DNA of 62,152 nucleotides from a virus (IMGVR_UViG_3300023178_003128:1-62152), one strand, 5' to 3'. Counted from the stretch's first letter, positions 4,430 through 31,743 are shown. The notes: a model not told the origin generated them from the sequence alone. Translations and numbers: made by a program.

Positions 4430-4940
4430 CTGGTGTATGAATAATTGTGAAATCCATCACGAGGATAAAACTAAAATTGATGCGATTGATAGTTTTTTAA
4501 CAGAATATGATGCAAATGAAGACAAAGAAAAGACCGGTTTATTACAGTTTTTAGTTCCAAACCCAGCAAACGAATGGGATTATGGTTGGTGTGTTGAAAA
4601 TTGGGGCACAAAGTGGGATATTCAACTCTATGAATGGGATAGAATTGATGAAAACACCATTTCTCTCAATTTTGATAGTGCTTGGGCACCACCAACAGTA
4701 GCTTATGACACATTAACCGAAGAAGGATATGATATTAGTGGTCATTACCTTGAAGAAGGCATGGGTTTTGTCGGTGCTCATGTAGATGGTGTTGATAAAT
4801 CTTATGAATTTGACTATGAAGATATCACAAAATTAGATGATATACCAGAAGAAGTGTTGGAACATTGGAATTTGCGTGAAAGAGTTGAAGAAGAAATTGA
4901 ATATCAGAAAGAAATTGATGAAGGTGAAGAAGAAGAGTGA
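4422..4940 (+). CDS. YubB/DUF1281-like ferredoxin-fold protein
   Basis: MPNWC.N start, NWGTKWD and FDSAWAPP motifs; very acidic. Confidence 0.75.
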   Translation: MPNWCMNNCEIHHEDKTKIDAIDSFLTEYDANEDKEKTGLLQFLVPNPANEWDYGWCVENWGTKWDIQLYEWDRIDENTISLNFDSAWAPPTVAYDTLTEEGYDISGHYLEEGMGFVGAHVDGVDKSYEFDYEDITKLDDIPEEVLEHWNLRERVEEEIEYQKEIDEGEEEE

Positions 4941-5638
4941 TAGAAAATTTTCAGATATTTAAAGAAAATATCTTAGTTGATGATAAATCTTATTTTTTTG
5001 AAAATTTTGTAAATAATATCACTTCACTTATTTCATGGAGTGATGTTGAAAGATGTTTGAACAATCCAATATTATATAATATTGATATGATAGACAATCA
5101 AACACAAAAAAATATCAACATACCAAAATATAATACTGAATTTTATGGTCTAGTGACAAGCCATAAACATATTATTGACAGCTTTAATCAAGGTAATACA
5201 GCCATTATTCATAATTATGGTTTGTATAGTGAGAAAACAAACGACTTTTTAAGAATGTTTGAAGAAAACTTTGATGTTTGTAGTAGAATTGCTGTTTATT
5301 GTGGTTTAAAAGAATCAAAATCATTTAAAATTCACGCTGATGAACCTAGTAATTTTATTATACAGGTTGAAGGCGAATCTGAATGGGTAATTTATAAAGA
5401 AAAAACATCATCATTATACTCACCGTCAAAAATAAATGAAATATGTGTTGATGATAGAGCGTTAGAAATAGAAACTGAATGTAAACTGAAATCTGGAGAT
5501 ATGCTTTATATACCAGCTAGAAGTTTCCATCAAATGAAATCGAATACAAAGAGAATTTCATTGAGTGTTCCTTGTTTTCCAAGAGAACAATATAAACTTT
5601 TACCTTTGGATAGAAATTATTATTCGATAGGAGATTAA
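4937..5638 (+). CDS. JmjC/cupin_4 family oxygenase
   Basis: F.IHAD..NFIIQVEG..EW and LKSGDMLYIP..SFH (HxD...H iron triad). Confidence 0.8.
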   Translation: MIENFQIFKENILVDDKSYFFENFVNNITSLISWSDVERCLNNPILYNIDMIDNQTQKNINIPKYNTEFYGLVTSHKHIIDSFNQGNTAIIHNYGLYSEKTNDFLRMFEENFDVCSRIAVYCGLKESKSFKIHADEPSNFIIQVEGESEWVIYKEKTSSLYSPSKINEICVDDRALEIETECKLKSGDMLYIPARSFHQMKSNTKRISLSVPCFPREQYKLLPLDRNYYSIGD

Positions 5639-5641
5639 AAA

Positions 5642-5968
5642 ATGGCTGCTACATGGGATTACAAACAGGAGAAAATTATGATGAATGTTGATGCTACACA
5701 ATTAGGTGAATTTAAAGACCAAGCAAGTAAAAATATTCTCATCCGAGCGTTGAAAGAACAAGAAGTTGTTGTTTCATTCAAAAAAGTTGATGGAACAATC
5801 AGAGATATGAAATGCACATTAATGGAAAATCGAATTCCAGAAGACAAAAAACCAAAATCTGAAAATTCAAAGAAAAATGACAGTGTTTTGCCGGTGTTCG
5901 ATATCGAAAAAGATTCTTGGCGAAGTTTTCGATGGGATTCTATTCAAAAAATTTCATTTCCTATTTAA
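5642..5968 (+). CDS. WYL_2/DUF2693 Sm-like beta-barrel protein
   Basis: V.FKKVDGTIR.M.CTL and VFDIEKDSWRSFR motifs. Confidence 0.75.
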   Translation: MAATWDYKQEKIMMNVDATQLGEFKDQASKNILIRALKEQEVVVSFKKVDGTIRDMKCTLMENRIPEDKKPKSENSKKNDSVLPVFDIEKDSWRSFRWDSIQKISFPI

Positions 5969-5973
5969 AAAGG

Positions 5974-5981
5974 CATAAATA
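5974..5981 (+). promoter_or_regulatory. T4-type late promoter
   Basis: CATAAATA, variant of T4 gp55 consensus TATAAATA, intergenic. Confidence 0.6.
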
Positions 5982-6017
5982 GACGACACTTTTTCAACTT
6001 TTTGGAGGAACTACATC

Positions 6018-6227
6018 ATGGCAAAACCAGGCGGACAACAAAGACTACATCCTAGCAAACGGCATCGAGATCCGTTAAAAACCAAGAACGAAAAACTAAG
6101 ATTGGGACCTCTAAACATTAAACAGCTTGAGGAACTTGTTGAAAAATCAAAAAGAAGACGAGACCGAGCAAAGTATTTAAAAGAACTTATTCGAAAACAA
6201 GCGATATTCGCTAAAAGGAGCAAATAA
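6018..6227 (+). CDS. small highly basic protein
   Basis: GGAGGA RBS; K/R-rich 69 aa. Confidence 0.65.
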   Translation: MAKPGGQQRLHPSKRHRDPLKTKNEKLRLGPLNIKQLEELVEKSKRRRDRAKYLKELIRKQAIFAKRSK

Positions 6228-6233
6228 TTCGTT

Positions 6234-6494
6234 ATGGCTGTTGTAAAAAAATTTAAAAACGCTAAACAAACTTTTGGAATGAAAGTTGTAATTGATGATA
6301 GAACTCCTTTTGACAAAGCTTTACGAATATTTAAAAGAAAAGTTGATAATTCAGGTCTTTTAAGAGAAATACGAGAAAGACAAGAATACGAAAAACCCTC
6401 CACCGAGAGAAAACTCGCAAAAAATCGTGCAAAAAAACGCTGGCAGAAAAAGTTTGAACAAACAATTGTTGCCGGTCGTGCCAAAAAATATTAG
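6234..6494 (+). CDS. rpsU: ribosomal protein bS21
   Basis: FDKALRIFKRKV..SGLLREIRERQEYEKPS.ERK is the S21 signature. Confidence 0.92.
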   Translation: MAVVKKFKNAKQTFGMKVVIDDRTPFDKALRIFKRKVDNSGLLREIRERQEYEKPSTERKLAKNRAKKRWQKKFEQTIVAGRAKKY

Positions 6495-6541
6495 CATAAA
6501 TAATAGTATTATTATTCTATATCTTTACGCTTAAAGCGTAA
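6495..6541 (+). promoter_or_regulatory. late promoter and leader hairpin of the curli-like operon
   Basis: CATAAATA 6495-6502; TTACGCT-taa-AGCGTAA inverted repeat 6525-6541. Confidence 0.55.
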
Positions 6542-6569
6542 TTGTCTTTGATAAATTACAGGAAAAACT

Positions 6570-7019
6570 ATGAAAACACCAATTTTATTGGGCGTTTTGT
6601 TATGGTCTTGTTTTGTGGTTTCAGCCCCGCTGGAAGATTTTGAATTTAAGAGTCCAGCCTTTAATGGTAATGGTTATTCTGCTCATGTTTTAACAATTGA
6701 GAATCAGGAACACTCTCGTAAGAAAGCTATTGCAGAAAAACTTGAAGCAAAACTCAAAGAAGCTGAAAGAGAAGCTAATAGCACCAATTTATCCAAATTT
6801 CTTAGCAACCTAGAATCAAGGATATATGCACAAATTAGCCAAGATTTGGCAACAGCAATGTTTGCTGATGATTCGTCATCTCCAACTTCTGGCACATTAA
6901 CATTTGAAGGAAATGTAATTTATTGGGATAAAAGTTCAGGTGATATAGAATTACAAGTTACTGATATAGCAGGCTCAACAACAACAATTACAATACCTTT
7001 GGGTGATTTTACTTTTTAA
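6570..7019 (+). CDS. csgF: curli assembly protein CsgF-like
   Basis: Signal peptide, then F.FKSPAFNG.G...L..ENQ (CsgF N-terminal pattern); adjacent to csgG. Confidence 0.8.
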   Translation: MKTPILLGVLLWSCFVVSAPLEDFEFKSPAFNGNGYSAHVLTIENQEHSRKKAIAEKLEAKLKEAEREANSTNLSKFLSNLESRIYAQISQDLATAMFADDSSSPTSGTLTFEGNVIYWDKSSGDIELQVTDIAGSTTTITIPLGDFTF

Positions 7020-7819
7020 TGAAACACTTATTATTACTACTATTAGCTTTAGTGCTAGTTGGTTGTGCTACTGGTCAAGCGATGCGAGGCGAATACGACC
7101 CGCCAATGGCAGTAGAAAAATCGACTGTTAAAGAATTTGATTCAATAGCAAAACCAAAACTAGGCAAAATAACAGTAGCTGTTTATAATTTTATAGATAA
7201 AACAGGACAAAGACGACCAAGTCAGAATACATCCAGTTTTTCTACTGCTGTTACACAAGGCGCTGAAAGTTTTTTAATTAAAGCACTAAAAGATGTTGGT
7301 GAATGTGGTTGGTTTGATGTGGTTGAAAGAGTTGGATTAGCAAGTCTAACACAAGAAAGACAAATTATACGCCAGATGCGAGAAGCGTATGAAGGTGCTG
7401 ATGCAAAACCACTTATGCCAATGAAATTTGCAGGAATGTTAATTGAAGGTGGTATTACCGGTTATGACCAATCAACAAGAAGTGGCGGAAACGCTGCTAG
7501 ATTGCTTGGCATAGGACCATCAACAAAATATAGTGAAGATATTATTACAGTAAGTTTAAGAGCAGTCAGTGTCAATACTGGTGTGGTATTGGCTGCGGTT
7601 AATGTTCAAAAAACAGTTTATTCTACCGCTGATAGTTTAGCTGTTTTAAAATTTTATGACCAAGGCACACAAGTTTTTGAATTTGAATCTGGTCTTACTT
7701 TAAATGAGCCAGCAACAATGGCAGTTAAAGCTGCTGTTGATGCAGCTGTAGTTGAACTCATTAAAGAAGGCGAAAGGAAGAAAGTTTGGGAATTTGCTAA
7801 CAGTCAGGAGACAAAATGA
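7019..7819 (+). CDS. csgG: curli secretion channel lipoprotein CsgG
   Basis: Lipobox LVGC; VAVY.F.DKTGQR, FSTAVTQGA, WF.VVER.GL..L..ERQIIR, IEGGI.GYD. Confidence 0.92.
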   Translation: MKHLLLLLLALVLVGCATGQAMRGEYDPPMAVEKSTVKEFDSIAKPKLGKITVAVYNFIDKTGQRRPSQNTSSFSTAVTQGAESFLIKALKDVGECGWFDVVERVGLASLTQERQIIRQMREAYEGADAKPLMPMKFAGMLIEGGITGYDQSTRSGGNAARLLGIGPSTKYSEDIITVSLRAVSVNTGVVLAAVNVQKTVYSTADSLAVLKFYDQGTQVFEFESGLTLNEPATMAVKAAVDAAVVELIKEGERKKVWEFANSQETK

Positions 7820-8586
7820 ATAAAATAGTAACAATGTTTTTTACATTATTACTGACAATGACGGTTGCGTTTGCAGCTGATAATAGCATTTATATTGACC
7901 AAGTGGGCGGAAGTTCTACAATTGATATTACACAAGATGGTAGTTCAAACAAAGTTTATGGAGTTGGAGATAGTGAAGGAACAGCCGCTACATTTACTGG
8001 TGATAGTCAGACAATTGATATAAGACAAGTTGGTTCAAGTAACTTATTAGGAATTGATTTAAATACTTCGGTTACTTCGGGTGTTGGTATTGATTTAACA
8101 TATTACATTACAGGTTCTAACTCTGTAGCAAGTATTGATGTTAATGGTGACGGTCAAGGTACCGCATCAAACAATACAATTGACATTCAAATGACTGGTG
8201 ATTATAATGACCTAACATTTGATTTACTTGGAACAGGTAATAGTTTAACTGCAACAGCAACTGGTGGTAATTATAACGATTTTGATTTTACCATTAATGC
8301 TGATTCAACCACTTCAAATGTAGCAATTAGTGGTGGCGGTGGTAATACAACAACACTTAATTTATCAAGTGATGATGCAACTGTTGATATTACAGCTGCT
8401 GGTGCAAGTAATACACTATCAGTAACACAAAGCGGTCTTGGTGGAACAAATGGTATGAACTTTGATTTAGATATTACTGGTTCATCTAACTCATTTACTT
8501 CAACACAAGCCGGCTCACAAGACAATGACATTGATGTGAATATTACTGGTTCAAGCAACACATGGACCATTTCACAAGATGACTAA
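7816..8586 (+). CDS. secreted curlin-like repeat protein (CsgA/CsgB-like)
   Basis: Signal peptide; repeated I.I.QxGxxN beta-arc units; G/S/T/N/D-rich. Confidence 0.75.
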   Translation: MNKIVTMFFTLLLTMTVAFAADNSIYIDQVGGSSTIDITQDGSSNKVYGVGDSEGTAATFTGDSQTIDIRQVGSSNLLGIDLNTSVTSGVGIDLTYYITGSNSVASIDVNGDGQGTASNNTIDIQMTGDYNDLTFDLLGTGNSLTATATGGNYNDFDFTINADSTTSNVAISGGGGNTTTLNLSSDDATVDITAAGASNTLSVTQSGLGGTNGMNFDLDITGSSNSFTSTQAGSQDNDIDVNITGSSNTWTISQDD

Positions 8587-9683
8587 TGAAAAAGTTTCTA
8601 GCACTCTTATTGTTAATACCCCTATTAGCTGAGAGTGCTATAGGAACTATCACAGACCACAAACACGACCCTCTATCAATCAAAAGACAAGATAAGACAC
8701 TAGAAGGTATTATGGGTACCGGTGTCGAAATGCAAGATACATTACGCACAGGCCAAGGCACGGCTGAAATTACATTTGAAGACCAAACACAAGTTCAAAT
8801 GACACAATCAGCCAAACTTATCATTGATGAGTTTGTCTATGACCCAGCAAATAGTGATGCAAGTAAATTGGCATTAAAGATTGCATCTGGAACGGCTAGA
8901 TACGCTTCTGGACAAATAGCAAAGAATAATCCACAGAAAGTTAAAATTAAAACGCCTAGCGCAACGGTATCGGTCCGTGGTACTGATTTTACTGCAACTG
9001 TTGATGAGATAGGTGCAACAACAGTTATTCTATTACCAAGTTGCCCAGCAGGTTGGCTTGATATGGAAAGAGATTGTATTACAGGTGCAATTGAAGTTGA
9101 ATCCTTAGGTGGTGTTGTTTTTATGGATAAACCATTTGAAGCAACTCGTGTGCCTAACCTAGAAGCAAAACCAACCCCACCAGTTATTGTTGATTTAACA
9201 GAGGAGATGATTCGACAAATTATTATTGTTGGACCACCTAAAGAAATTAAAGAACAAGATGTTGCAGAAGCCTCAAATAATATATTAGATCAAAGTGAAT
9301 TAGATAAAGACTTACTAGAAAATGAACTTGATAAAGAAGATGAAAAACTTTATGAAAACAAACTGGCACAAAATCTATTAGATAGAGATTTTCTTAAAAA
9401 CATTTTAGATATATTAGATTTACAATTAAAACTAGCACAAGAAAGAACATTATCAACACAAGAAAAGAATGAGATACTTCCTGATTATATACCTGACCAA
9501 GGTGTAACAGCAACAGTTGATACAATCAATGTTGAACTTTGTATTGATACGACCGGTAGTGATATTGCTTGTGTCAGAGTTCCCACACACCAAGAAGCTA
9601 CCATAAGACAAATACAAGGCGCTGTTGATATAACAAATAGGGTGAATAGTGAAGGCACGACCATAATTACAACTAAACAATGA
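8586..9683 (+). CDS. secreted FecR-domain protein
   Basis: Signal peptide; D.LRTG.G.AEITFED.T, IKTPSATVSVRGTDF FecR motifs. Confidence 0.85.
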   Translation: MKKFLALLLLIPLLAESAIGTITDHKHDPLSIKRQDKTLEGIMGTGVEMQDTLRTGQGTAEITFEDQTQVQMTQSAKLIIDEFVYDPANSDASKLALKIASGTARYASGQIAKNNPQKVKIKTPSATVSVRGTDFTATVDEIGATTVILLPSCPAGWLDMERDCITGAIEVESLGGVVFMDKPFEATRVPNLEAKPTPPVIVDLTEEMIRQIIIVGPPKEIKEQDVAEASNNILDQSELDKDLLENELDKEDEKLYENKLAQNLLDRDFLKNILDILDLQLKLAQERTLSTQEKNEILPDYIPDQGVTATVDTINVELCIDTTGSDIACVRVPTHQEATIRQIQGAVDITNRVNSEGTTIITTKQ

Positions 9684-9802
9684 AAACTATAATTCTTATT
9701 TGTGTATTTTTAATTGGTTGCACCACACCTGTGGAAGGCAAGTATCCTGTCAACGAATATTTGAGGCCAAATGGTTGGAACGACCATTTTTGGGTAGCAT
9801 GA
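9680..9802 (+). CDS. 40-aa lipoprotein (not in ORF track)
   Basis: MKTIILICVFLIGC-TTPVEGKYPVNEYLRPNGWNDHFWVA*; lipobox LIGC; ATGA overlaps with both neighbours. Confidence 0.65.
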   Translation: MKTIILICVFLIGCTTPVEGKYPVNEYLRPNGWNDHFWVA

Positions 9803-11298
9803 GATACTTAATCACAATACTGTTATTTGTCTGTTCTAATGCGTTTGCTTTAGACATCCTAATTTATCACAACAACTATGCTTACACTGATTCAAAGTCT
9901 GGACTTGAAGGGCAAGGATACACTGTGACAGGCACAACATCAACAACAACTGATTCAGCATCAACTCTGGCAAACTATGATGTAGTATTTGACCAACTAT
10001 ACAACAATAACTGTGGATCAACTTGTCGTGGTAACTATGACACTTATGTTAAAGACGGTGGCACTCTAGTTATCGTGGGCGAGAACTCAAACTTTTCTGG
10101 TAGAAACTCAAACATTGTGAGTTTGATTGAAAACAAGTTTGGAGGCACATTAGATTTAGGTTCTGATGTTTATGGTGGAGAATATTACACGGGTGGCACG
10201 AACAACACAACCAATACATCAATTAGTGGCGCTGATGATGGCGGACAATATATTGCTGGATCAAGTATTGCCACAACATCAGACGGCACTTGGGTAGCAA
10301 AGACCTCTGGTGGCGCCATAATTTGGATGATGTGGCGTGGCAGTAGTTTGCCAAGTGGCTACACGGGTTCTGTTATAGTGACATTTGACATTAATCAGTT
10401 CCAAGCAAGTTATGATAGTGATGCTACCTGGGAATTCTTTGATGATGTTGTTTATTATGGTATCAATGGTGAAATGCAATCAAGTTCACCAACAACATCT
10501 ACCACAACAGGAACAAGTGGTGGTATAACATCAGCACAGTCAACATCTAAGAGCCAAGCAAGAACAAGAAGCGATAGTTACACAAATGGTAATACTGTTT
10601 ATATTGACCAGATTGGTAATAATAATACCGTAACAATCGAACAAGATGGCACAGCAACAAATACTATCAAAGGAATATATCTAAATGGTAATGATGCTGG
10701 TGTAATAAATGGAAGTTCAAATACAATTGAAATGAGACAAGGTGCTGACACAAGCACATCATCAAACTTAATTGAGTTTTCTATTATTGGTAGCACAAAC
10801 GATGTATTGTTATACCAAGATAGATTGAATACAGGATATGAAGACACACAAGCTGGTGGTGGCCATACAATACAATTAGATTTAGATGGTGATTTAAATG
10901 ACATTGATATTATTCAAAGAAATAACTATGATACCAATGGTGGTCATTTTGTAAATTTAGAAGTAACAGGTGATAGTAATGTTTTAGATTTAAAACAAAT
11001 TTCTGACTATGGTAAAAATATATTTGGTAAAGTAACAGGTGATTCAAATAATGTTACTGTTTATCAACACGATGATTCAAACAAATACCTAGATTTCAAT
11101 TTAACTGGTGATGGTCATACAATTGATGTTGAACAAACCGGTACAGGTGCTCATAATGCTGAGATTGATTTAACATATGGTTCAGCTTCATCAACAGTTA
11201 ATTTACTTCAACAAGGTTCAACCAACCAAAGTTACTCAATAGAACAAACTTGTTATACAACAGGTGGATGTTCAACCACCGTAACTCAAGGCCAATAA
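9799..11298 (+). CDS. secreted protein: N-terminal alpha/beta domain, Ser/Thr linker, C-terminal curlin-like repeats
   Basis: Likely start ATG 9799 (MRYLITILL..AFA signal peptide); C-terminal half has NTVYIDQIGNNN-type repeats ending in C-x5-C. Confidence 0.75.
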   Translation: MRYLITILLFVCSNAFALDILIYHNNYAYTDSKSGLEGQGYTVTGTTSTTTDSASTLANYDVVFDQLYNNNCGSTCRGNYDTYVKDGGTLVIVGENSNFSGRNSNIVSLIENKFGGTLDLGSDVYGGEYYTGGTNNTTNTSISGADDGGQYIAGSSIATTSDGTWVAKTSGGAIIWMMWRGSSLPSGYTGSVIVTFDINQFQASYDSDATWEFFDDVVYYGINGEMQSSSPTTSTTTGTSGGITSAQSTSKSQARTRSDSYTNGNTVYIDQIGNNNTVTIEQDGTATNTIKGIYLNGNDAGVINGSSNTIEMRQGADTSTSSNLIEFSIIGSTNDVLLYQDRLNTGYEDTQAGGGHTIQLDLDGDLNDIDIIQRNNYDTNGGHFVNLEVTGDSNVLDLKQISDYGKNIFGKVTGDSNNVTVYQHDDSNKYLDFNLTGDGHTIDVEQTGTGAHNAEIDLTYGSASSTVNLLQQGSTNQSYSIEQTCYTTGGCSTTVTQGQ

Positions 11299-11308
11299 AT
11301 AAGAAACT

Positions 11309-13309
11309 ATGAATAAATTATTATCGCCTTGGTGGGCACTTTTATTACTTTTTATATTAATCCCGATTCGAGTAAATGATTATGCTTTTGTTGAATCATT
11401 ACGATTAAGATATTTTGATACACTGATAACATCAGTACCAGAAACAACAAACAATATACATCTGGTTAATATTGACGAATCAGCACTTGAAAAACATGGA
11501 CAGTTTCCATTTAATCGTGGTGTTTATGCTGACATCATTGAAGATTTATATAAAAGAAAAGCCGGTCTAGTTATATTTAATATAATGATGCCTGAGAAAG
11601 ATAGGTCAGGTGAAGATTTTAAATTAATAGAAACATTAAAAAATTATCCTATCATATTACCTAATGCTGGTTCAGATGTAACAAAAAATGAACCAAAAAA
11701 TCCAGGTGCAGTTTCAATTGGTATTAGTAGAGACAAAACAGTTGAATATCCTGGTATCATAGCCAACATAAAAGAATTAGAACAACTTGCTTCTGGTGTT
11801 GGCATTGTAAATACATTTCCTGAGATTGATGGTGTGACACGAAGAATGCCATTAGTCATTTCAAGTAATAATATTCTTTATCCTAGTTTATCACTTGAGA
11901 CTTTGAGAGTTATTGCTGGTGACCCAAGTTTTCAAATTAAATTTAATGAACTTGGTGTTCAAGCATTAAGAATACCACAGTTTGGTAAAATACAGACGGA
12001 TACCATTGGTCGTATATGGATTGATTGGCAACAAAAAGGTGTCGAACATAGTCTAACTAAACTTCCAGATTCTTTTGATGATGGTGTTGTAATCGTAGGT
12101 GTGACAGCGAAAGGATTATCAAATCCAATTTCTACAAGCATAGGCGAAGTATGGCCACATTATGCACAAGCTTCAGTTGTAGGAACTTTGTTCAATAATG
12201 TTAATATATCAAGGCCTGATTGGGCTGACGGTGCTGAATTACTCAGCATTGTTGTTTTATCAATCATACTACTTTTAATATCGAGGTGGAAATATGGAAT
12301 TATTCCTAACATTGGTATTATTTACGGTTTGTATTATACTTCGATGTATGTTTTCCAAAGAGAAAATATATTATTGGACGCTTCTTTTCCTATTGTCAGT
12401 GTGGTTATTGTTTATAGTATTGGTTATACGCTTAAATTTCTATCTGAATTAAGACAAAAACTACAAATTAAAAAACAATTTGGAACTTATCTATCACCAG
12501 CTCTTGTAGAAAAACTACAAAAGAATCCTGAGTTACTTAAACTCGGTGGTGAGACACGAGAATTATCAATTATGTTTTCAGATGTTCGTGGTTTCACAAC
12601 CATATCTGAACACTATGGAAAAGATGTTCAAGGTTTAACTCAAATTATGAACCGTTATATGACCGCTATGACACAAAAAATACTTGATAACAACGGAACA
12701 CTTGACAAGTATATTGGTGATGCTCAGATGGCATTTTGGAATGCCCCACTTGATGACAGAGACCATGCTAAAAATGCTGTTAAGACAGCTCTTCAAATGT
12801 TGGAAGACTTAAGGAGTTTTAACCATGAAATCTCAAAAGAAGGTATCCCGCCGTTCGGTATGGGATTGGGTATTAATTCTGGCGATGTGGTTGTGGGTAA
12901 TATGGGCAGTTCTCAGCGCTTTGACTATACTTGTTTGGGCGATAGCTGTAATCTCGCATCAAGGTTAGAGGGTCAAAGTAAAAATTATGGTGTTGAATTA
13001 ATCATTGGTAAAAGAACCGCAGATTTAATACAAGATGAATATGATGTTGTTGAATTAGATACAATTGCTGTAAAAGGTAAAACACTAGGTGTCAAAATAT
13101 ATACAGTGACACCTATGCCAGATAAAACAGAACATAAAAAGTTCTTAAGAGCATATTATGCTGGTGAATGGAAAACGGCTTTACTAATGACAGGTAAATT
13201 AAGAATACAAAATTCTCAACTAATTAAATATTATGATTTAATGGCAGAAAGATTAAAACAAGGTGTTCCTGCTAAATGGGATGGAGTATATCACGCTACT
13301 TCGAAGTAG
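11309..13309 (+). CDS. CHASE2-domain class III adenylate cyclase
   Basis: N-terminal TM, CHASE2 (LVNIDE.AL...GQFPF.R, DGVTRRMPL), three TMs, FSDVRGFT, DKYIGDA, GNMGS..RFDYT.LGD..NLASRLE; Lys/Asp specificity residues favour ATP. Confidence 0.92.
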   Translation: MNKLLSPWWALLLLFILIPIRVNDYAFVESLRLRYFDTLITSVPETTNNIHLVNIDESALEKHGQFPFNRGVYADIIEDLYKRKAGLVIFNIMMPEKDRSGEDFKLIETLKNYPIILPNAGSDVTKNEPKNPGAVSIGISRDKTVEYPGIIANIKELEQLASGVGIVNTFPEIDGVTRRMPLVISSNNILYPSLSLETLRVIAGDPSFQIKFNELGVQALRIPQFGKIQTDTIGRIWIDWQQKGVEHSLTKLPDSFDDGVVIVGVTAKGLSNPISTSIGEVWPHYAQASVVGTLFNNVNISRPDWADGAELLSIVVLSIILLLISRWKYGIIPNIGIIYGLYYTSMYVFQRENILLDASFPIVSVVIVYSIGYTLKFLSELRQKLQIKKQFGTYLSPALVEKLQKNPELLKLGGETRELSIMFSDVRGFTTISEHYGKDVQGLTQIMNRYMTAMTQKILDNNGTLDKYIGDAQMAFWNAPLDDRDHAKNAVKTALQMLEDLRSFNHEISKEGIPPFGMGLGINSGDVVVGNMGSSQRFDYTCLGDSCNLASRLEGQSKNYGVELIIGKRTADLIQDEYDVVELDTIAVKGKTLGVKIYTVTPMPDKTEHKKFLRAYYAGEWKTALLMTGKLRIQNSQLIKYYDLMAERLKQGVPAKWDGVYHATSK

Positions 13310-21197: not shown

Positions 21198-21404
21198 ATG
21201 GGTAAAGTAAAAGAGTTATATACAGAATATACCGAATTACTTAAAAGTGCAGACTGGTATTTTGAATATTCAGATGACCATAGAGTATGGCAATCTGGTG
21301 TTAATCAATTTCAACAACTTGAAAAAATGGCACAAGAAATTGACCCAAAATACACAATCTGGAACGAGTATGCACCAGATGCTTTTAAAGTAACAATTGA
21401 TTAA
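21198..21404 (+). CDS. hypothetical protein
   Basis: GGAG RBS; DWYFEYSDDHRVW motif. Confidence 0.65.
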   Translation: MGKVKELYTEYTELLKSADWYFEYSDDHRVWQSGVNQFQQLEKMAQEIDPKYTIWNEYAPDAFKVTID

Positions 21405-22971
21405 ATTAGGCATTCAAAAACATCATAACTGCTCTATCAGTTTGTTTGATGATAATAAACTTCTATTCTATATGGAAGAAGATAGATTATCAAAAACTAA
21501 ACATACCGGTGGAGTTCCTATAAATTCTTTAATAGAATTAAAAAAATTAAATTACAATATTGATAAAGTTTATTTAACTGGTTACAATCATAATTATGAT
21601 GAAGCTATTTTGGTGACGACTGCGGTTAGACAAATTTTAAAAATAGACCAAAAAATAGCAATTAATTGGGAAGAATATCAATACAGCCATCATACAACAC
21701 ACGCTTTTAAAGCATTTGAATCATCTGGTTTTAATGATGCAATAATTATTGTCAGCGATGGAAGAGGAAGTAGTTATGGTGTCATGGACAATGATACGAG
21801 AAACGGAATAAATTATGAATTATCTTCAATATTTTATTTTTCAAAACATATAAAAAGAACACTATTTAAACACTTATATACAGAAAACTTATCAAGATTC
21901 AAATTATTAAATATACCTTTTGAATATGAAACAAAGTTTACTGAACATTTGAGTGGTGGTAATTTATACGCTCAAGCTACAACAAAAATAGGATTAAATT
22001 CTAATGAAGAAGGTAAGTTTATGGGTTTGGCTGCGTATGGCAAATATGATAAACGATACGATAAAAATTTTAGATATGAAGAATTACAAAAACTTAAAAT
22101 TGATAATTTTGCTAACTTTGCTTTTACAATCCAATCTAATTTAGAAGAATATAGAAAAAATCTTTTACTTAAAGCTTTAGAACATAAAATGACAAATAAT
22201 ATTGTATTAACAGGTGGTGTAGCTTTAAATGTTGTTTCAAATTACAAACTTAAACAAACTTTCAATGAACTTAATTTTTATGTTGAACCCATGTGTGGTG
22301 ATGAAGGCAATTCAATTGGAATTGTTAATTTTTTAGGTGGAACAAATACAGGTAAGTTAAAAGATATTTACATTGTTGGAAATAATCCTATCTATCATAC
22401 CAATTTTGAAGGTTTCAATTTTATTGATGTGAAAGAAAAAGATATTGTTGATTTATTATGTAAAAAAAATATGGTTTGTATATTTCAAGGAAAAGCTGAA
22501 GCTGGCCCAAGAGGTTTAGGAAACAGAAGTATTTTATTTGACCCTAGAGTAAAAAACGGAAAAGACATAGTTAATAAAGTTAAAAAACGAGAAGAGTATA
22601 GGCCTTTTGCTTGTTCAATTATGCATGAATTCGCTAATGATTGGTTTGACATGGCCGGTTTAGATGAATCACCATTTATGATGTATGCTGTGCAAGCTAA
22701 AAAAGATATTAAGAAAAAAATACCATCAGTTATACATGAAGACAATACTTGTAGAGTTCAGACGGTTAAAAGTGAGCAGAATAAAGCTTTATATGATTTA
22801 TTAAAAGCTTTTAATGAAAAAACTGGTGTTCCAGTTTTGTTTAACACATCGTTTAATTTAGCAGGAGAAACAATAGTTCATACTTTAGAAGATGCAATAG
22901 ACACGCTCAGGCGCTCCAAACTAAAATATCTTTACTTACCCGAACTTAAAAAATTGGCAATAAAAGCTTGA
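21397..22971 (+). CDS. carbamoyltransferase (NodU/CmcH family)
   Basis: EEDRLS..KH, HH..HA, DGRG, EGKFMGLAAYG, GGVALNV..N, EAGPRGLGNRS, KKRE.YRPFA, NTSFN. Confidence 0.92.
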   Translation: MIKLGIQKHHNCSISLFDDNKLLFYMEEDRLSKTKHTGGVPINSLIELKKLNYNIDKVYLTGYNHNYDEAILVTTAVRQILKIDQKIAINWEEYQYSHHTTHAFKAFESSGFNDAIIIVSDGRGSSYGVMDNDTRNGINYELSSIFYFSKHIKRTLFKHLYTENLSRFKLLNIPFEYETKFTEHLSGGNLYAQATTKIGLNSNEEGKFMGLAAYGKYDKRYDKNFRYEELQKLKIDNFANFAFTIQSNLEEYRKNLLLKALEHKMTNNIVLTGGVALNVVSNYKLKQTFNELNFYVEPMCGDEGNSIGIVNFLGGTNTGKLKDIYIVGNNPIYHTNFEGFNFIDVKEKDIVDLLCKKNMVCIFQGKAEAGPRGLGNRSILFDPRVKNGKDIVNKVKKREEYRPFACSIMHEFANDWFDMAGLDESPFMMYAVQAKKDIKKKIPSVIHEDNTCRVQTVKSEQNKALYDLLKAFNEKTGVPVLFNTSFNLAGETIVHTLEDAIDTLRRSKLKYLYLPELKKLAIKA

Positions 22972-29975: not shown

Positions 29976-30002
29976 AATACCCGCTCAGGCGGGTATTTTT
30001 TT
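29976..30002. terminator. intrinsic terminator between convergent genes
   Basis: AATACCCGC-tcag-GCGGGTATT plus T run; adjacent 16-bp palindrome TAAGATTTAAATCTTA at 29956-29971. Confidence 0.8.
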
Positions 30003-31743
30003 ATGCCGTTCTTGCGACTAATTGTCCGCTATCTCGTTTTTCTCTTTGAATAGTAACATCTTTACTTACAATGTTTGTATTTGTTGTTGTTGGTGCATTA
30101 ATAATTGTTGGATTTTCCGCTTTCATCATACTTCTTTTACCCACAGCGATATCATTTGAAGCCATAGAAATTGAAGAACCTTGTTCATCACCAGCCTGTG
30201 CAATTAAACCAACAATTTTAGGTCCTCTGACACCAACCTGAGAAAACCATTTACTATCTTTTAGATTTTCAGATGCTAGTGTAAAGTTTCCTTGTTCTAA
30301 TGCAGCTTTTGTGTTTGGCCATTTAGGCCACCATTTGCCCATATTAAATGCAAGGTCAATCATTGCACCTTTACCTGCTTCGTTTGCTTGAGCATAACCA
30401 GGTGTTTGTTCTGCTATTTTTTTGTGATGTTCAAAATCTTTTTCAAACATACTTGCAACTTCTTCATCACTAAATCTTCTATCCATAGAAGACGGTAATG
30501 TATTACCTATCAAGTGACCAACACCAACAGTCCAAAGTCCTTCCGTGTCTTTGTAAGGAGTATTTTCCCAACCCTCGTGTTGTATTATCATTGATTTGGT
30601 ATCATCAAAGGACATACTTGGAACAGCTTCTGGAGTAGTTTCTGCTGATGGTGGTTCAGTAATAGTTGTTTCTGGCGTTACAGTTGGAGTTGCTCCTTCT
30701 TCTACCGCATCTTGTTTTTCTCCCTCTCCACCAGGTTGATTAAATTCTTTCCACAGTTGATATATTTCATATGCAGACCAAACTGATAAACCTATATTAA
30801 CAATAGCAGCTATCCAACCAACAACAGGTATGGCTGCTAAACCAGCAGCTGTTGCTAGTCTTACTCCAACTTTTGCCATAAGTTTTGGTGATTTTCTTTT
30901 TGCAAAATTTAAAAAGCGAGTCCATTTTGAATTTGAACCTTTTAAAGCTTTCATTTGTTTTTGTTTTGTTAAGGCTTCTTTTTTATCAAGTTCAGCAAAT
31001 TTTCTCGCTTGTCTATTTTTTAATCCAACTTTCGCTTTGTTTTTTAATTTATTAATGACCGCTTTGCCGACTTTGTATTGAACAACCGCACCGGCTGTTG
31101 CAGCTGCAGCTGCTTGATTTTGTTGTAATTCTTTATCAATGTTTAAAGTGGCGTTTGGTTTTGGTGCAGGAAGTTGTTGTCCTGTAATAAAAGATAAAAT
31201 ATTGTTTAGACCAATAGCAATCATATCACCAATTCTTAAAAAGAAGTCTTTAACTTTATCAAAGAAGCCTGCGTTTTCTATTGTTTTTCCTACTGTTGAT
31301 TCTTCACTTGAAAATATATCTTTTATAAAGCCTGAAAAATCACTCCACTTCTCTTTGAAAAATTTAGGTAATTCTTCTGAAAACATTTTTTTAAATGTTT
31401 CAACTAATGCTTCACCTATACCTTTTAATTGGGGTTCAAATTCTTTGTATAATTTTGGTAGGGCATATAAAGCACCCATAGCCAAAATCACACCTTTAAT
31501 TATTTTAGAAAATAAACTTTCTTTTTTCTTTTCTTTTTCTTCAACAGTAACTTCAACTTCTGGAGTTGGAGATATTTCACTACCTTTTGGAATTTCAATA
31601 GCTGTAGAAACATTTCGACCGGTTCTAAGTTTTACATATTCAACAAAGTCTTTTGCTATAGCAGAAAAGCTTTCAGTAATAACTGAATAAACATCTAAGC
31701 TTATTGTTCTTTGTCTTTCTAAGGTTGGTGAAGTATCTGCCAT
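30001..31743 (-). CDS. tail/baseplate-hub protein with C-terminal T4-type (GH24) lysozyme domain
   Basis: IIQHEG....YKDTEG.WTVGVGH...DLAFNMG...SKW..QVG.R; TM-like segments upstream. Confidence 0.8.
   Translation of the reverse strand: MADTSPTLERQRTISLDVYSVITESFSAIAKDFVEYVKLRTGRNVSTAIEIPKGSEISPTPEVEVTVEEKEKKKESLFSKIIKGVILAMGALYALPKLYKEFEPQLKGIGEALVETFKKMFSEELPKFFKEKWSDFSGFIKDIFSSEESTVGKTIENAGFFDKVKDFFLRIGDMIAIGLNNILSFITGQQLPAPKPNATLNIDKELQQNQAAAAATAGAVVQYKVGKAVINKLKNKAKVGLKNRQARKFAELDKKEALTKQKQMKALKGSNSKWTRFLNFAKRKSPKLMAKVGVRLATAAGLAAIPVVGWIAAIVNIGLSVWSAYEIYQLWKEFNQPGGEGEKQDAVEEGATPTVTPETTITEPPSAETTPEAVPSMSFDDTKSMIIQHEGWENTPYKDTEGLWTVGVGHLIGNTLPSSMDRRFSDEEVASMFEKDFEHHKKIAEQTPGYAQANEAGKGAMIDLAFNMGKWWPKWPNTKAALEQGNFTLASENLKDSKWFSQVGVRGPKIVGLIAQAGDEQGSSISMASNDIAVGKRSMMKAENPTIINAPTTTNTNIVSKDVTIQREKRDSGQLVARTA

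Follow-up and report, generated by a model that had tools for sequence, protein, structure and literature searches.

A pelagiphage-type T8SS gene cluster joined to FecR and CHASE2 cyclase genes in a T4-like myophage: a candidate fibre module with a borrowed cAMP sensor

Pelagiphages have been reported to carry clusters of CsgF, CsgG, CsgA/B, FecR and adenylate cyclase genes, with expression in metatranscriptomes (PMC9599517, 2022). FecR is taken as an iron regulator in these accounts (PMC7029224, PMC9599517), and the passages searched in the two papers contain no mention of CHASE2. In podophage clusters FecR is always present and the cyclase only frequent (PMC9599517), so that FecR must be able to act without the cyclase too, which counts against the sensor pairing preferred below. 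FecR-domain genes are also described beside CHASE2 receptor genes in bacteria: smc02177 adjoins the CHASE2 cyclase gene cyaD1 in S. meliloti (PMC5498481), a Campylobacterota cluster combines a CHASE2 cyclase with FecR-domain, TPR and phosphodiesterase genes (PMC9239204), and Burkholderiales and P. aeruginosa have an operon of LysM-FecR and a CHASE2 histidine kinase (PMC5192318). The Sinorhizobium CHASE2 cyclases CyaD1, CyaD2 and CyaK sense an extracellular protein via the outer-membrane protein NsrA (PMC13001267), and in FecR itself the FecR domain touches an outer-membrane protein (PMC5498481).

The locus considered here lies in a 62,152-nucleotide viral stretch, IMGVR_UViG_3300023178_003128 (the window), whose carrier is a T4-like myophage of salt-marsh and estuary metagenomes; baseplate and tail PHROGs are part of the operon's phage context. 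Seven ORFs run head to tail on one strand, from csgF to a CHASE2 class III cyclase gene, with successive junction overlaps of 1, 4, 1, 4 and 4 nt and then a 10-nt gap before the cyclase. This order, with its overlapping or near-abutting junctions, had been put forward in an earlier, sequence-only reading; ORF calls and Pfam agree with it, and Pfam likewise returns the gene identities given there (CsgF, CsgG, Curlin_rpt, FecR, CHASE2 and Guanylate_cyc). The features are:

6495..6502, + strand: CATAAATA, a T4-type late-promoter-like motif 68 nt upstream of csgF (motif scan)
6525..6541, + strand: short hairpin, stem 7 bp, lying after the motif and ahead of the csgF ribosome-binding region (terminator-like scan)
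6570..7019, + strand: csgF-like gene, 149 aa (Pfam CsgF 1.9e-13; phrog_35372 1.9e-53)
7019..7819, + strand: csgG-like outer-membrane lipoprotein pore gene, 266 aa (Pfam CsgG 2.9e-49)
7816..8586, + strand: curlin-repeat protein 1, 256 aa (Pfam Curlin_rpt 1.6e-4)
8586..9683, + strand: secreted FecR-domain protein, 365 aa (Pfam FecR 4.6e-11; phrog_37870 1.2e-107)
9680..9802, + strand: 40-aa ORF with a lipoprotein-type signal, LIGC (ORF call)
9799..11298, + strand: curlin-repeat protein 2, 499 aa, ATG start (Pfam Curlin_rpt 7.9e-5)
11309..13309, + strand: CHASE2 class III (IIIb-like) adenylate cyclase, 666 aa (Pfam CHASE2 5.5e-34, Guanylate_cyc 2.4e-20; phrog_35576 8e-262)

The gene set is not new, and the window holds a further copy of the pelagiphage T8SS cluster. 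Novelty had been seen in the joining of FecR and a cyclase to the secretion genes; this has to be given up, the combination being already in print (PMC9599517) and present in the same order in Pelagibacter phage HTVC008M (KC465899), where CsgF, CsgG, curlin, FecR, a second curlin and adenylate cyclase follow one another as in the window. The window's phage is a different one: its proteins are 32-45% identical to those of HTVC008M, and the clusters are alike in lying beside tail and baseplate genes, but HTVC008M lacks both the 40-aa ORF at the FecR/curlin-2 junction and the N-terminal extra domain of curlin 2. The 40-aa ORF overlaps both neighbours by ATGA. It had been listed as a lipoprotein gene, and the ORF and its LIGC signal are indeed there, but it is not conserved: no homologue occupies the same slot among 125 related viral loci, and in locus L049 an unrelated 50-aa membrane ORF is found instead. 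Its standing as a real gene is uncertain.

The explanation preferred here, to which we would give a probability of about 0.6, is that the operon is a viral T8SS fibre module of known type, expressed late, to which a borrowed FecR/CHASE2 cAMP sensor has been added. Its genes would be co-transcribed late from a NATAAATA-type promoter; CsgG and CsgF would export the curlin proteins onto the surface of the infected cell, and the FecR-domain protein would partner the CHASE2 domain in the periplasm. FecR and CHASE2 would together make up a two-gene sensor of the alphaproteobacterial kind, joined to T8SS genes by the phage lineage, which may respond to a state of the periplasm or surface by making cAMP, to be read by a host protein; candidate effects of the cAMP are on host physiology, surface behaviour, or timing.

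On the secretion side, the window has the CsgG pore, the CsgF partner and the predicted exported curlin-repeat subunits of type VIII secretion, and is without the CsgE gate and CsgC chaperone: neither had been recognisable by eye, and their models match nothing anywhere in the 62-kb window. Both are also absent from alphaproteobacterial modules (PMC9599517). CsgG residues 1-264 align to residues 1-259 of the E. coli CsgG structures 3x2r/6l7a (1.4e-45, full-length), and the lipobox is LVGC. CsgF covers positions 22-132 of the 132 in the Pfam profile and has a signal-peptide-like hydrophobic N-terminus by hydropathy; a phmmer search with it against PDB gave no match. The constriction residues of CsgG, by our own comparison with those of E. 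coli, appear only partly kept. With E. coli curli (CsgG/CsgF/CsgA/CsgB/CsgE; PDB 3x2r, 6l7a, 6si7) the phage cluster shares CsgG, a match to the CsgF family and repeats of curlin type, but the phage curlin proteins are far longer, one of them has an extra domain, and CsgE and CsgC are lacking.

Curlin-repeat protein 1 has a signal-like N-terminus, a G/N/S/T/D-rich composition and four h-x-h-x-Q-x-G-type repeat motifs, and matches the NCBIfam CsgA model at 6.5e-6, under that model's cut-off. Curlin-repeat protein 2 consists of a signal peptide, an N-terminal domain (~18-262), a Ser/Thr linker and curlin repeats (~265-499) with six repeat motifs; the N-terminal domain is seen only fused to curlin repeats (89 metagenome proteins), and Pfam and Atlas offer no lead from it to any family. 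The two genes score 22.0 and 23.0 bits with Curlin_rpt, against a cut-off of 20.7; that these matches are barely over threshold counts against the preferred explanation.

The FecR-domain protein is predicted to be exported by Sec and has no anti-sigma part. An alignment of 30 viral homologues gives it a signal peptide, the FecR domain (~20-150), a further conserved beta region to ~215, an acidic Leu/Asp-rich linker (~220-300) and a C-terminal domain of ~70 aa ending in I-x-x-x-Q; its sole hydrophobic segment, by hydropathy, is N-terminal. A C-terminal h-x-h-x-Q ending, common to the curlin proteins, occurs in 62/68 FecR proteins, 0/73 CsgG proteins and 0/90 cyclases, and the FecR C-terminus has a weak profile match to curlin repeats (hhalign probability 11%, P 0.0027). 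There is no retention_LapA match at E 0.01 or better. Membership of FecI/FecR/FecA surface signalling, with which the FecR Pfam domain is held in common, was considered and rejected, there being no cytoplasmic anti-sigma part, membrane anchor, ECF sigma or STN; neither Sigma70_r2 nor STN is matched anywhere in the 62 kb of the window, which make up only about 37% of the genome.

The cyclase is predicted to be a CHASE2 receptor of the inner membrane whose output part is an intact class III catalytic domain specific for ATP. Its layout is a TM, a periplasmic CHASE2 domain (~25-312; the Pfam match spans residues 15-322), a TM cluster (304-378), the catalytic domain (~380-600) and a conserved C-terminal extension (600-666), with hydrophobic segments at 2-28 and 304-378; as in CHASE2 receptors, the sensor domain sits between an N-terminal TM and a TM cluster, ahead of the output domain. 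The class III residue set of two metal-binding Asp, substrate-specifying Lys plus Thr, and transition-state Asn and Arg is complete (D425, D471, K467, T541, N548, R552); D425 (FSDV), D471 (IGDA), K467, N548 and R552 (NLASR) are invariant across 12 viral cyclases, and the catalytic residues align with those of P. aeruginosa CyaB, 3r5g, and others. An intact set with a Lys/Asp pair had been claimed: the metal Asp, Lys, Asn and Arg bear this out, but the second substrate-specifying position is T541, seven residues ahead of the Asn, as in CyaB (T/S/D among relatives), so that the pair is Lys/Thr (class IIIb-like). Scans for a cNMP-binding domain gave nothing, either in the window or in five related phage records, the complete HTVC008M included; this counts against a sensor role.

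In phages, the linkage on which the sequence-only reading depended holds well, csgG, FecR and the cyclase being kept in order across many contigs. Among 45 CsgG-anchored viral loci fetched, 33/33 of those that extend 2.5 kb or more downstream have FecR, always as the gene immediately following curlin 1, and 24/25 of those that extend 7 kb or more have the cyclase; these and the following viral loci are not independent, many being near-identical, which counts against reading FecR and the cyclase as a sensor pair. Anchoring on the cyclase instead (the best 80 of at least 594 loci) gives FecR and CsgG in 46 of the 50 loci with at least 6 kb upstream, with the cyclase inverted yet adjacent in 3 of the 46. 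Of 80 distinct viral loci, 16 have the FecR and cyclase genes overlapping or no more than 24 nt apart; in the window, one curlin gene and the 40-aa ORF part the two.

For bacteria the same expectation is half borne out: FecR lies beside CHASE2 far above chance, but T8SS genes do not accompany them. In a sample of 151 Alphaproteobacteria, a FecR match lies within 10 kb of at least 30 of the 137 CHASE2 matches (19 of 63 genomes), versus ~1.6 expected; the strongest, anti-sigma-type FecR matches are near CHASE2 in 0/62 cases, the weaker ones in 31/88. The closest bacterial cyclases (30-37% identity) are nearly all labelled Alphaproteobacteria, and their loci contain a viral-FecR HMM match in 26/80 cases, 10 of them within 600 nt. 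T8SS genes were found in 0/80 of these cyclase loci, and the bacterial T8SS loci closest to phage CsgG have a FecR gene within ~9 kb in 0/8. Among the loci examined, T8SS joined to FecR and cyclase is confined to phages, so the phage linkage could reflect block transfer, not a shared pathway.

An exported FecR-domain gene near a CHASE2 receptor gene is found in the window, in the viral loci and in bacteria, and the comparison suggests that FecR and the CHASE2 cyclase may act as a sensor pair. The S. meliloti CyaD1/CyaD2/CyaK-NsrA-Clr pathway has in common alphaproteobacterial-type CHASE2 class III cyclases with a FecR-domain gene nearby, but its outer-membrane part is the beta-barrel NsrA, not CsgG, and its cAMP reader, Clr, is known. 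Its smc02177 is reported dispensable for signal perception (PMC5498481): the FecR gene next door is not always the input, which counts against the pairing. The BiofilmReg operon/PA4035-4036 and the Campylobacterota cluster likewise have a secreted FecR-domain gene beside a CHASE2 receptor, but the bacterial pairs have histidine kinase output in Burkholderiales and LysM on FecR, or adhesin-type repeats in alphaproteobacterial loci, and none is T8SS-linked. Many FecR partners of the closest bacterial cyclases are large and adhesin-like, with FecR as their N-terminal domain, and most of the partners are without an N-terminal hydrophobic segment; sub-threshold matches to retention_LapA were obtained for 4/6 and to BapA-prefix for 2/6, and of 15 scanned, 2 have RTX (HemolysinCabind) and 7 cadherin/Big_9 repeats. 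They resemble LapA-type adhesins, whereas the phage protein, of 365 aa, begins with a Sec signal peptide; the likeness is one of system, not membership. To judge from sequence, giant LapA-like adhesins whose N-terminal module is FecR, encoded beside CHASE2 cyclases, appear to be a so far undescribed arrangement.

The alternative that survives best, though unlikely, is that the phage FecR serves the T8SS as an accessory, such as an adaptor or gate in the periplasm that replaces CsgE, and that the CHASE2 cyclase is an independent host-manipulating gene, raising cAMP on a periplasmic cue of its own. The absence of CsgE from the window, the universality of FecR but not of the cyclase in phage clusters (PMC9599517), the unvarying place of FecR right after the first curlin gene (33/33) and its curlin-like ending (62/68) are all consistent with this; the lack of FecR near the nearest bacterial T8SS loci (0/8), the strong enrichment of divergent-type bacterial FecR genes beside CHASE2 receptors and the translational abutment of FecR and cyclase in 16/80 viral loci argue the other way.

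Another possibility, which we consider quite unlikely, is that the FecR protein is a trans-envelope tether, its FecR domain touching CHASE2, its linker passing through CsgG/CsgF and its C-terminus lying in the surface fibre. The folded FecR domain may stay periplasmic while the acidic ~80-residue linker threads the CsgG/CsgF channel, and the C-terminal curlin-like strand may be built into, or seed, the fibre of the two curlin proteins. The shared h-x-h-x-Q ending (62/68 FecR proteins) and the weak hhalign match to curlin repeats lend this indirect support. If so, the tether would let the infected cell report the state of its surface fibre (whether it is assembled, what load it bears, or whether it touches cells, particles or virions) as cAMP, and would be the T8SS counterpart of the LapA-like FecR adhesins beside bacterial CHASE2 cyclases.

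It is improbable that the cluster is a fibre module only, for "sibling capture" aggregation or as a superinfection barrier, with FecR (in an iron/ferric-citrate role) and the cyclase regulating T8SS expression. This accords with published hypotheses (PMC9599517, PMC7029224) and with a complete minimal T8SS having two candidate fibre subunits, but the FecR domain follows directly on the signal peptide with no anti-sigma part or second hydrophobic segment, ECF sigma and STN domains were not found in the window, canonical FecR matches are near CHASE2 in 0/62 cases, and cells infected by the related phage Melnitz did not clump (PMC9004378). The sequence-only reading's idea of a lysis-timing role akin to T4 lysis inhibition gained no support here. 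A repurposing of CsgG/CsgF as a pinholin- or secretin-like gated pore by which lysis is timed, with the other genes tuning its opening, was published for Melnitz (PMC9004378) and would suit the late-promoter-like motif, but is very improbable for an operon that encodes two curlin-repeat substrates, assumed missing in that paper, whose CsgG matches E. coli CsgG full-length and which has no link to holin/endolysin genes, an endolysin-like domain lying at 30001-31743 on the opposite strand.

Late expression, part of the preferred explanation, can be set beside the motif counts. CATAAATA, presumably a promoter by analogy with T4-like late promoters, occurs 9 times in the window versus 8.0 expected and so is not enriched as such. 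Its core ATAAATA is depleted (15 versus 36.4 expected), and by our reading of the scans 12 of these 15 precede a same-strand ORF start by 5-72 nt, including those at 6496 (before csgF) and 11295 (before the cyclase). The late-type motif noted earlier is present ahead of csgF, with its core mostly near ORF starts, but without enrichment of the full motif. Two RNA-library contigs start at 6531 and 6536, near the hairpin, a weak hint; segments of csgF, csgG, the two curlin genes and the cyclase gene recur unchanged in RNA-library contigs from four metatranscriptome runs.

The 62,152-base IMG/VR viral contig, estimated to be 37% of a complete genome, codes for T4-like baseplate, tail-tube-cap and tail proteins, and the seven-gene head-to-tail cluster proposed in the sequence-only reading was recovered as seven ORFs on one strand between 6570 and 13309. 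The first five junctions are overlaps of 1, 4, 1, 4 and 4 nt, and the last is a gap of 10 nt.

ORFs of the cluster, in order, with Pfam E-values
First ORF, + strand: CsgF (1.9e-13)
Second ORF, + strand: CsgG (2.9e-49)
Third ORF, + strand: curlin 1 (Curlin_rpt, 1.6e-4)
Fourth ORF, + strand: FecR-domain protein (FecR, 4.6e-11)
9680-9802, + strand: 40-aa ORF (no Pfam family)
Sixth ORF, + strand: curlin 2 (Curlin_rpt, 7.9e-5)
Seventh ORF, + strand: cyclase (CHASE2, 5.5e-34; Guanylate_cyc, 2.4e-20)

The window's CsgG aligns over its full length with the solved E. coli CsgG (1.4e-45); CsgF found no match in the PDB with phmmer. All cluster products but the cyclase have a single N-terminal hydrophobic segment, and lipoboxes are present on CsgG and on the 40-aa product. 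The absence of csgE and csgC was borne out, models of both being without a match in the window. The extra N-terminal domain of curlin 2 matched no Pfam family even at E 10 and gave no useful Atlas lead, and its homologues are solely curlin fusions, from metagenomes. The proposed 40-aa lipoprotein gene has its lipobox and ATGA coupling, but no conservation, there being no counterpart in 125 related loci; the coupling, present at both ends, argues for a real gene, and we regard the ORF as a lineage-specific insert of uncertain status. The slot it occupies, between the FecR gene and curlin 2, is variable: most relatives have no ORF there, and in one related locus, L049, it is filled by a Cys-rich membrane ORF of 50 aa (7684-7836) that bears no relation to the window's, the small ORFs of both window and L049 overlapping the ends of both neighbours. 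Directly 5' of the cluster lies a homologue of ribosomal protein S21 (6234-6494, + strand; phrog_21469, 3e-15), a core gene in pelagimyophages (PMC7029224; this and the other papers cited are represented here by excerpts of their text). Elsewhere in the window, a 580-aa protein (30001-31743, - strand) has an endolysin- or virion-lysozyme-like C-terminal region.

The observation as a whole was thus confirmed, with three corrections; its claim to novelty did not survive. As a genome finding the cluster is already known: its six main genes recur, in the window's order and with 32-45% protein identity to it, in Pelagibacter phage HTVC008M and are in print (PMC9599517), annotated in HTVC008M as CsgF, CsgG, curlin-associated, two hypothetical proteins and adenylate/guanylyl cyclase. 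At the nucleotide level, the phage collection yielded a single match, 230 nt long, to HTVC008M. (HTVC008M also shares with the window a Nol-like carbamoyltransferase, here at 21397-22971, + strand; phrog_1601, 2.7e-131.) A curli operon of pelagimyophages has been described (PMC7029224), and podo- and myo-pelagiphages are reported to carry CsgF, CsgG, CsgA/B, FecR, a second CsgA/B and adenylate cyclase, with a global distribution, gene trees placing them near Alphaproteobacteria, and curli genes on phages common across ocean viromes (PMC9599517). Proposed roles include aggregation, superinfection defence, import and a lysis pore, none of them based on experiment in the excerpts (PMC7029224, PMC9004378, PMC9599517), the pinholin or secretin proposal coming from phage Melnitz (PMC9004378). 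The word CHASE2 does not occur in the excerpts of these three papers. In podophages a histidine kinase is upstream of csgF (PMC9599517); none was found among the ORFs 5' of csgF in two related loci with myophage genes (L005, L021).

Co-conservation and gene order, proposed earlier as a check, hold well in phages. Among 45 CsgG-anchored viral loci, 33 extend for 2.5 kb or more downstream, and every one of these has a FecR gene; 25 extend for 7 kb or more, and 24 of them have the cyclase. The exception, L008, does have the cyclase on its contig, but about 13 kb downstream (L119). Viewed from the cyclase (best 80 of at least 594 loci), FecR and CsgG accompany it in 46 of 50 loci with at least 6 kb upstream, the others being L055, L065, L094 and L119, and three of the FecR-carrying loci have the cyclase inverted yet adjacent. 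Of 80 distinct same-strand viral loci, 16 have the FecR gene directly against the cyclase gene or overlapping it, and 44 have curlin 2 between the two; viral loci are often near-identical, so such counts are not independent. The cluster genes have one common phage history, so a mirror-tree or covariation comparison of FecR with CHASE2 would not tell the hypotheses apart. The cluster is found also in T4-like phages of 235-337 kb, five records of which include three with a Gp23 capsid gene and one with direct terminal repeats. The csgF-csgG-curlin-FecR-cyclase cluster occurs in L082 (235,812 bases), L101 (337,119) and L104 (328,068), each with Gp23 and a CheckV completeness of 92-100%.

The candidate late-type motif ahead of csgF, NATAAATA, was partly upheld: CATAAATA is indeed present at 6495-6502, but the octamer shows no enrichment, with 9 copies where 8.0 are expected. 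Its ATAAATA core is depleted (15 copies against 36.4 expected, with at least 15 in 100 of 100 shuffles), and TATAAATA is nearly absent from the window (1 copy against 9.7). By our own reading of the positions, 12 of the 15 core sites are 5-72 nt upstream of a same-strand ORF start, and a second copy of the motif, after the one before csgF, is 8 nt ahead of the cyclase start codon. T4-type late promoters have a characteristic word, and this depletion and placement fit what is expected of a word reserved for them. The window's stretch is present in salt-marsh and estuary metagenomes, and four metatranscriptome libraries yielded RNA contigs (at least 99% identical) that match stretches of csgF, csgG, the two curlin genes and the cyclase gene; since RNA libraries may contain DNA, these matches lend weak support to expression. 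No RNA contig from the four runs covers 8604-9537 in the FecR gene, an interval whose absence from contigs cannot show absence of transcript, and contigs begin at 6531 and 6536, starts that cannot define a transcript start. Expression of the phage cluster in metatranscriptomes has been reported independently (PMC9599517).

Bacterial neighborhoods are arranged differently. The closest bacterial cyclases, nearly all from Alphaproteobacteria going by record titles, share 30-37% identity over their full length, C-terminal extension included. At 80 such loci, HMMs built from the viral proteins picked up no CsgF, CsgG or curlin gene up to 10 kb away; a FecR match was present at 26, in 10 of them at most 600 nt from the cyclase frame. 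Conversely, a CsgG protein search matched 8 of 401 sampled alphaproteobacterial genomes (42-46% identity), all 8 with csgF and csgG accompanied by curlin genes and none with FecR or cyclase within about 9 kb. The union of the type VIII secretion (curli) system, or T8SS, with FecR and cyclase is thus phage-specific among the loci examined, in agreement with the description of bacterial T8SS operons as having no FecR, kinase or cyclase (PMC9599517). Full-length cyclase homologues (33% identity) are also found in two SAR86 single-cell assemblies (L195, L201; contigs of 158-264 kb), with no FecR or T8SS match within 10 kb.

FecR and CHASE2, on the other hand, are a recurrent bacterial pair. In 151 sampled Alphaproteobacteria there were 137 CHASE2 matches over the cut-off, in 63 genomes, and 215 FecR matches, 150 of them listed and used for neighborhood counts: a listed FecR match lies no more than 10 kb from at least 30 of the 137 CHASE2 matches, in 19 genomes, where chance would give about 1.6. 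Among those 150, none of the 62 strongest FecR matches (anti-sigma type) is near CHASE2, compared with 31 of the 88 weaker ones. Published examples include a Campylobacterota cluster in which a CHASE2 cyclase and a FecR-domain protein are accompanied by a TPR protein and a phosphodiesterase (PMC9239204), a LysM-FecR and CHASE2 kinase operon in Burkholderiales and P. aeruginosa (PMC5192318), and the S. meliloti FecR-domain gene smc02177, which adjoins the CHASE2 cyclase gene cyaD1 (PMC5498481). On these comparisons, the phage lineage probably joined the bacterial FecR/CHASE2 pair to a T8SS.

The published interpretation of FecR in the phages is as an iron-dependent ferric-citrate regulator (PMC9599517). 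The sequence-only reading instead proposed a sensor, in which a surface cue would pass through CsgF/G and FecR to the CHASE2 cyclase and so to cAMP. In S. meliloti an external protein is reported to act on CHASE2 cyclases by way of NsrA, a protein of the outer membrane (PMC13001267), a precedent for trans-envelope input into a CHASE2 cyclase; smc02177 is dispensable for plant-signal perception (PMC5498481), which counts against a simple version. Of the two readings of FecR, the candidate sensor is the better grounded. Read as a bacterial-type sensor pair, FecR and the cyclase would make the role of the phage curli genes testable: does cyclase output depend on FecR and on the T8SS fibre? Membership of a FecIRA system was considered and rejected, the phage FecR protein having neither an anti-sigma domain nor a membrane anchor. 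ECF sigma and STN domains were not found in the window.

The cyclase itself appears equipped for catalysis. D425, K467, D471, N548 and R552 do not vary in an alignment of 12 viral homologues, and line up with their counterparts in class III cyclases of solved structure, P. aeruginosa CyaB (3r5g) among them. The catalytic set proposed earlier stands for the metal Asp, Lys, Asn and Arg, but the specificity pair is Lys/Thr rather than Lys/Asp: T541, seven residues ahead of the Asn, is Thr in CyaB also (T, S or D in relatives), so that the enzyme looks like an ATP-specific class IIIb-type cyclase. Its CHASE2 domain is flanked by an N-terminal hydrophobic segment and a hydrophobic cluster at 304-378. 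The C-terminal extension matches no Pfam family; it ends WDG-x-Y/F-x-AT-S/T-K in the window and in bacterial homologues, and the conserved stretch of about 65 residues is missing from the 612-616-aa cyclases of L014, L021 and L036. A cNMP-binding domain was found neither in the window nor in five related viral records, namely HTVC008M, which is complete, and four more, two of them at least 96% complete. If cAMP is the output, it would be read by a protein of the host or by an unrecognised one of the phage.

How FecR might connect fibre and cyclase is a more speculative matter. In the phage protein the N-terminal half is conserved and leads, through an acidic linker, to a C-terminal domain of about 70 residues; the C-terminal half of the protein matches no Pfam family, and a profile of 30 FecR proteins found no PDB sequence with an E-value under 0.3. 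A C-terminal h-x-h-x-Q motif, at most four residues from the end, is present in 62 of 68 viral FecR proteins (loci L003-L127), in curlin 2 (28 of 49 strictly, 47 loosely) and in curlin 1 (15 of 58 strictly, 31 loosely), and in none of 73 CsgG or 90 cyclases; hhalign gave a weak match of the FecR C-terminus to curlin profiles (probability 11-13%). From the shared ending, the three-part layout and this match one might picture a tether, with the FecR domain on CHASE2 in the periplasm, the linker threaded through CsgG/CsgF and the C-terminal strand in the fibre, an arrangement we offer as inference and not as a result, and consider rather unlikely (roughly one chance in six).

An unexpected parallel comes from the bacterial FecR proteins beside the closest cyclases: they resemble LapA-like adhesins exported by type I secretion, with an N-terminal module that would be kept in the periplasm. 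The FecR domain is N-terminal in all 15 scanned, most with no hydrophobic segment ahead of it, and in 10 it is followed by adhesin-type extracellular modules (Cadherin_4/5, Big_9, Laminin_G, NIDO, DUF4114, RTX repeats); sub-threshold NCBIfam matches were to retention_LapA (4 of 6) and BapA-prefix (2 of 6), together with RTX-type C-termini. Such adhesin-like proteins beside CHASE2 cyclases are an unstudied bacterial theme, and the pairing could be a general coupling of surface structures to cAMP. At eight alphaproteobacterial loci, Bradyrhizobium among their sources (L136, L139, L148, L149, L152, L156, L141, L180; about 4500-9900 in each), the closest CHASE2 cyclase homologue has immediately 5' of it an ORF of 1200-2000 aa with N-terminal FecR and then cadherin-like, Big_9 or Laminin_G repeats. 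Two other loci, L162 (18058-21003, - strand) and L158 (13826-16771, + strand), one of them from a 1.4-Mb marine single-cell genome, encode FecR-domain proteins within 1.6-5.7 kb of CHASE2 cyclases; these carry RTX calcium-binding repeats at the C-terminus and match the LapA retention module below threshold.
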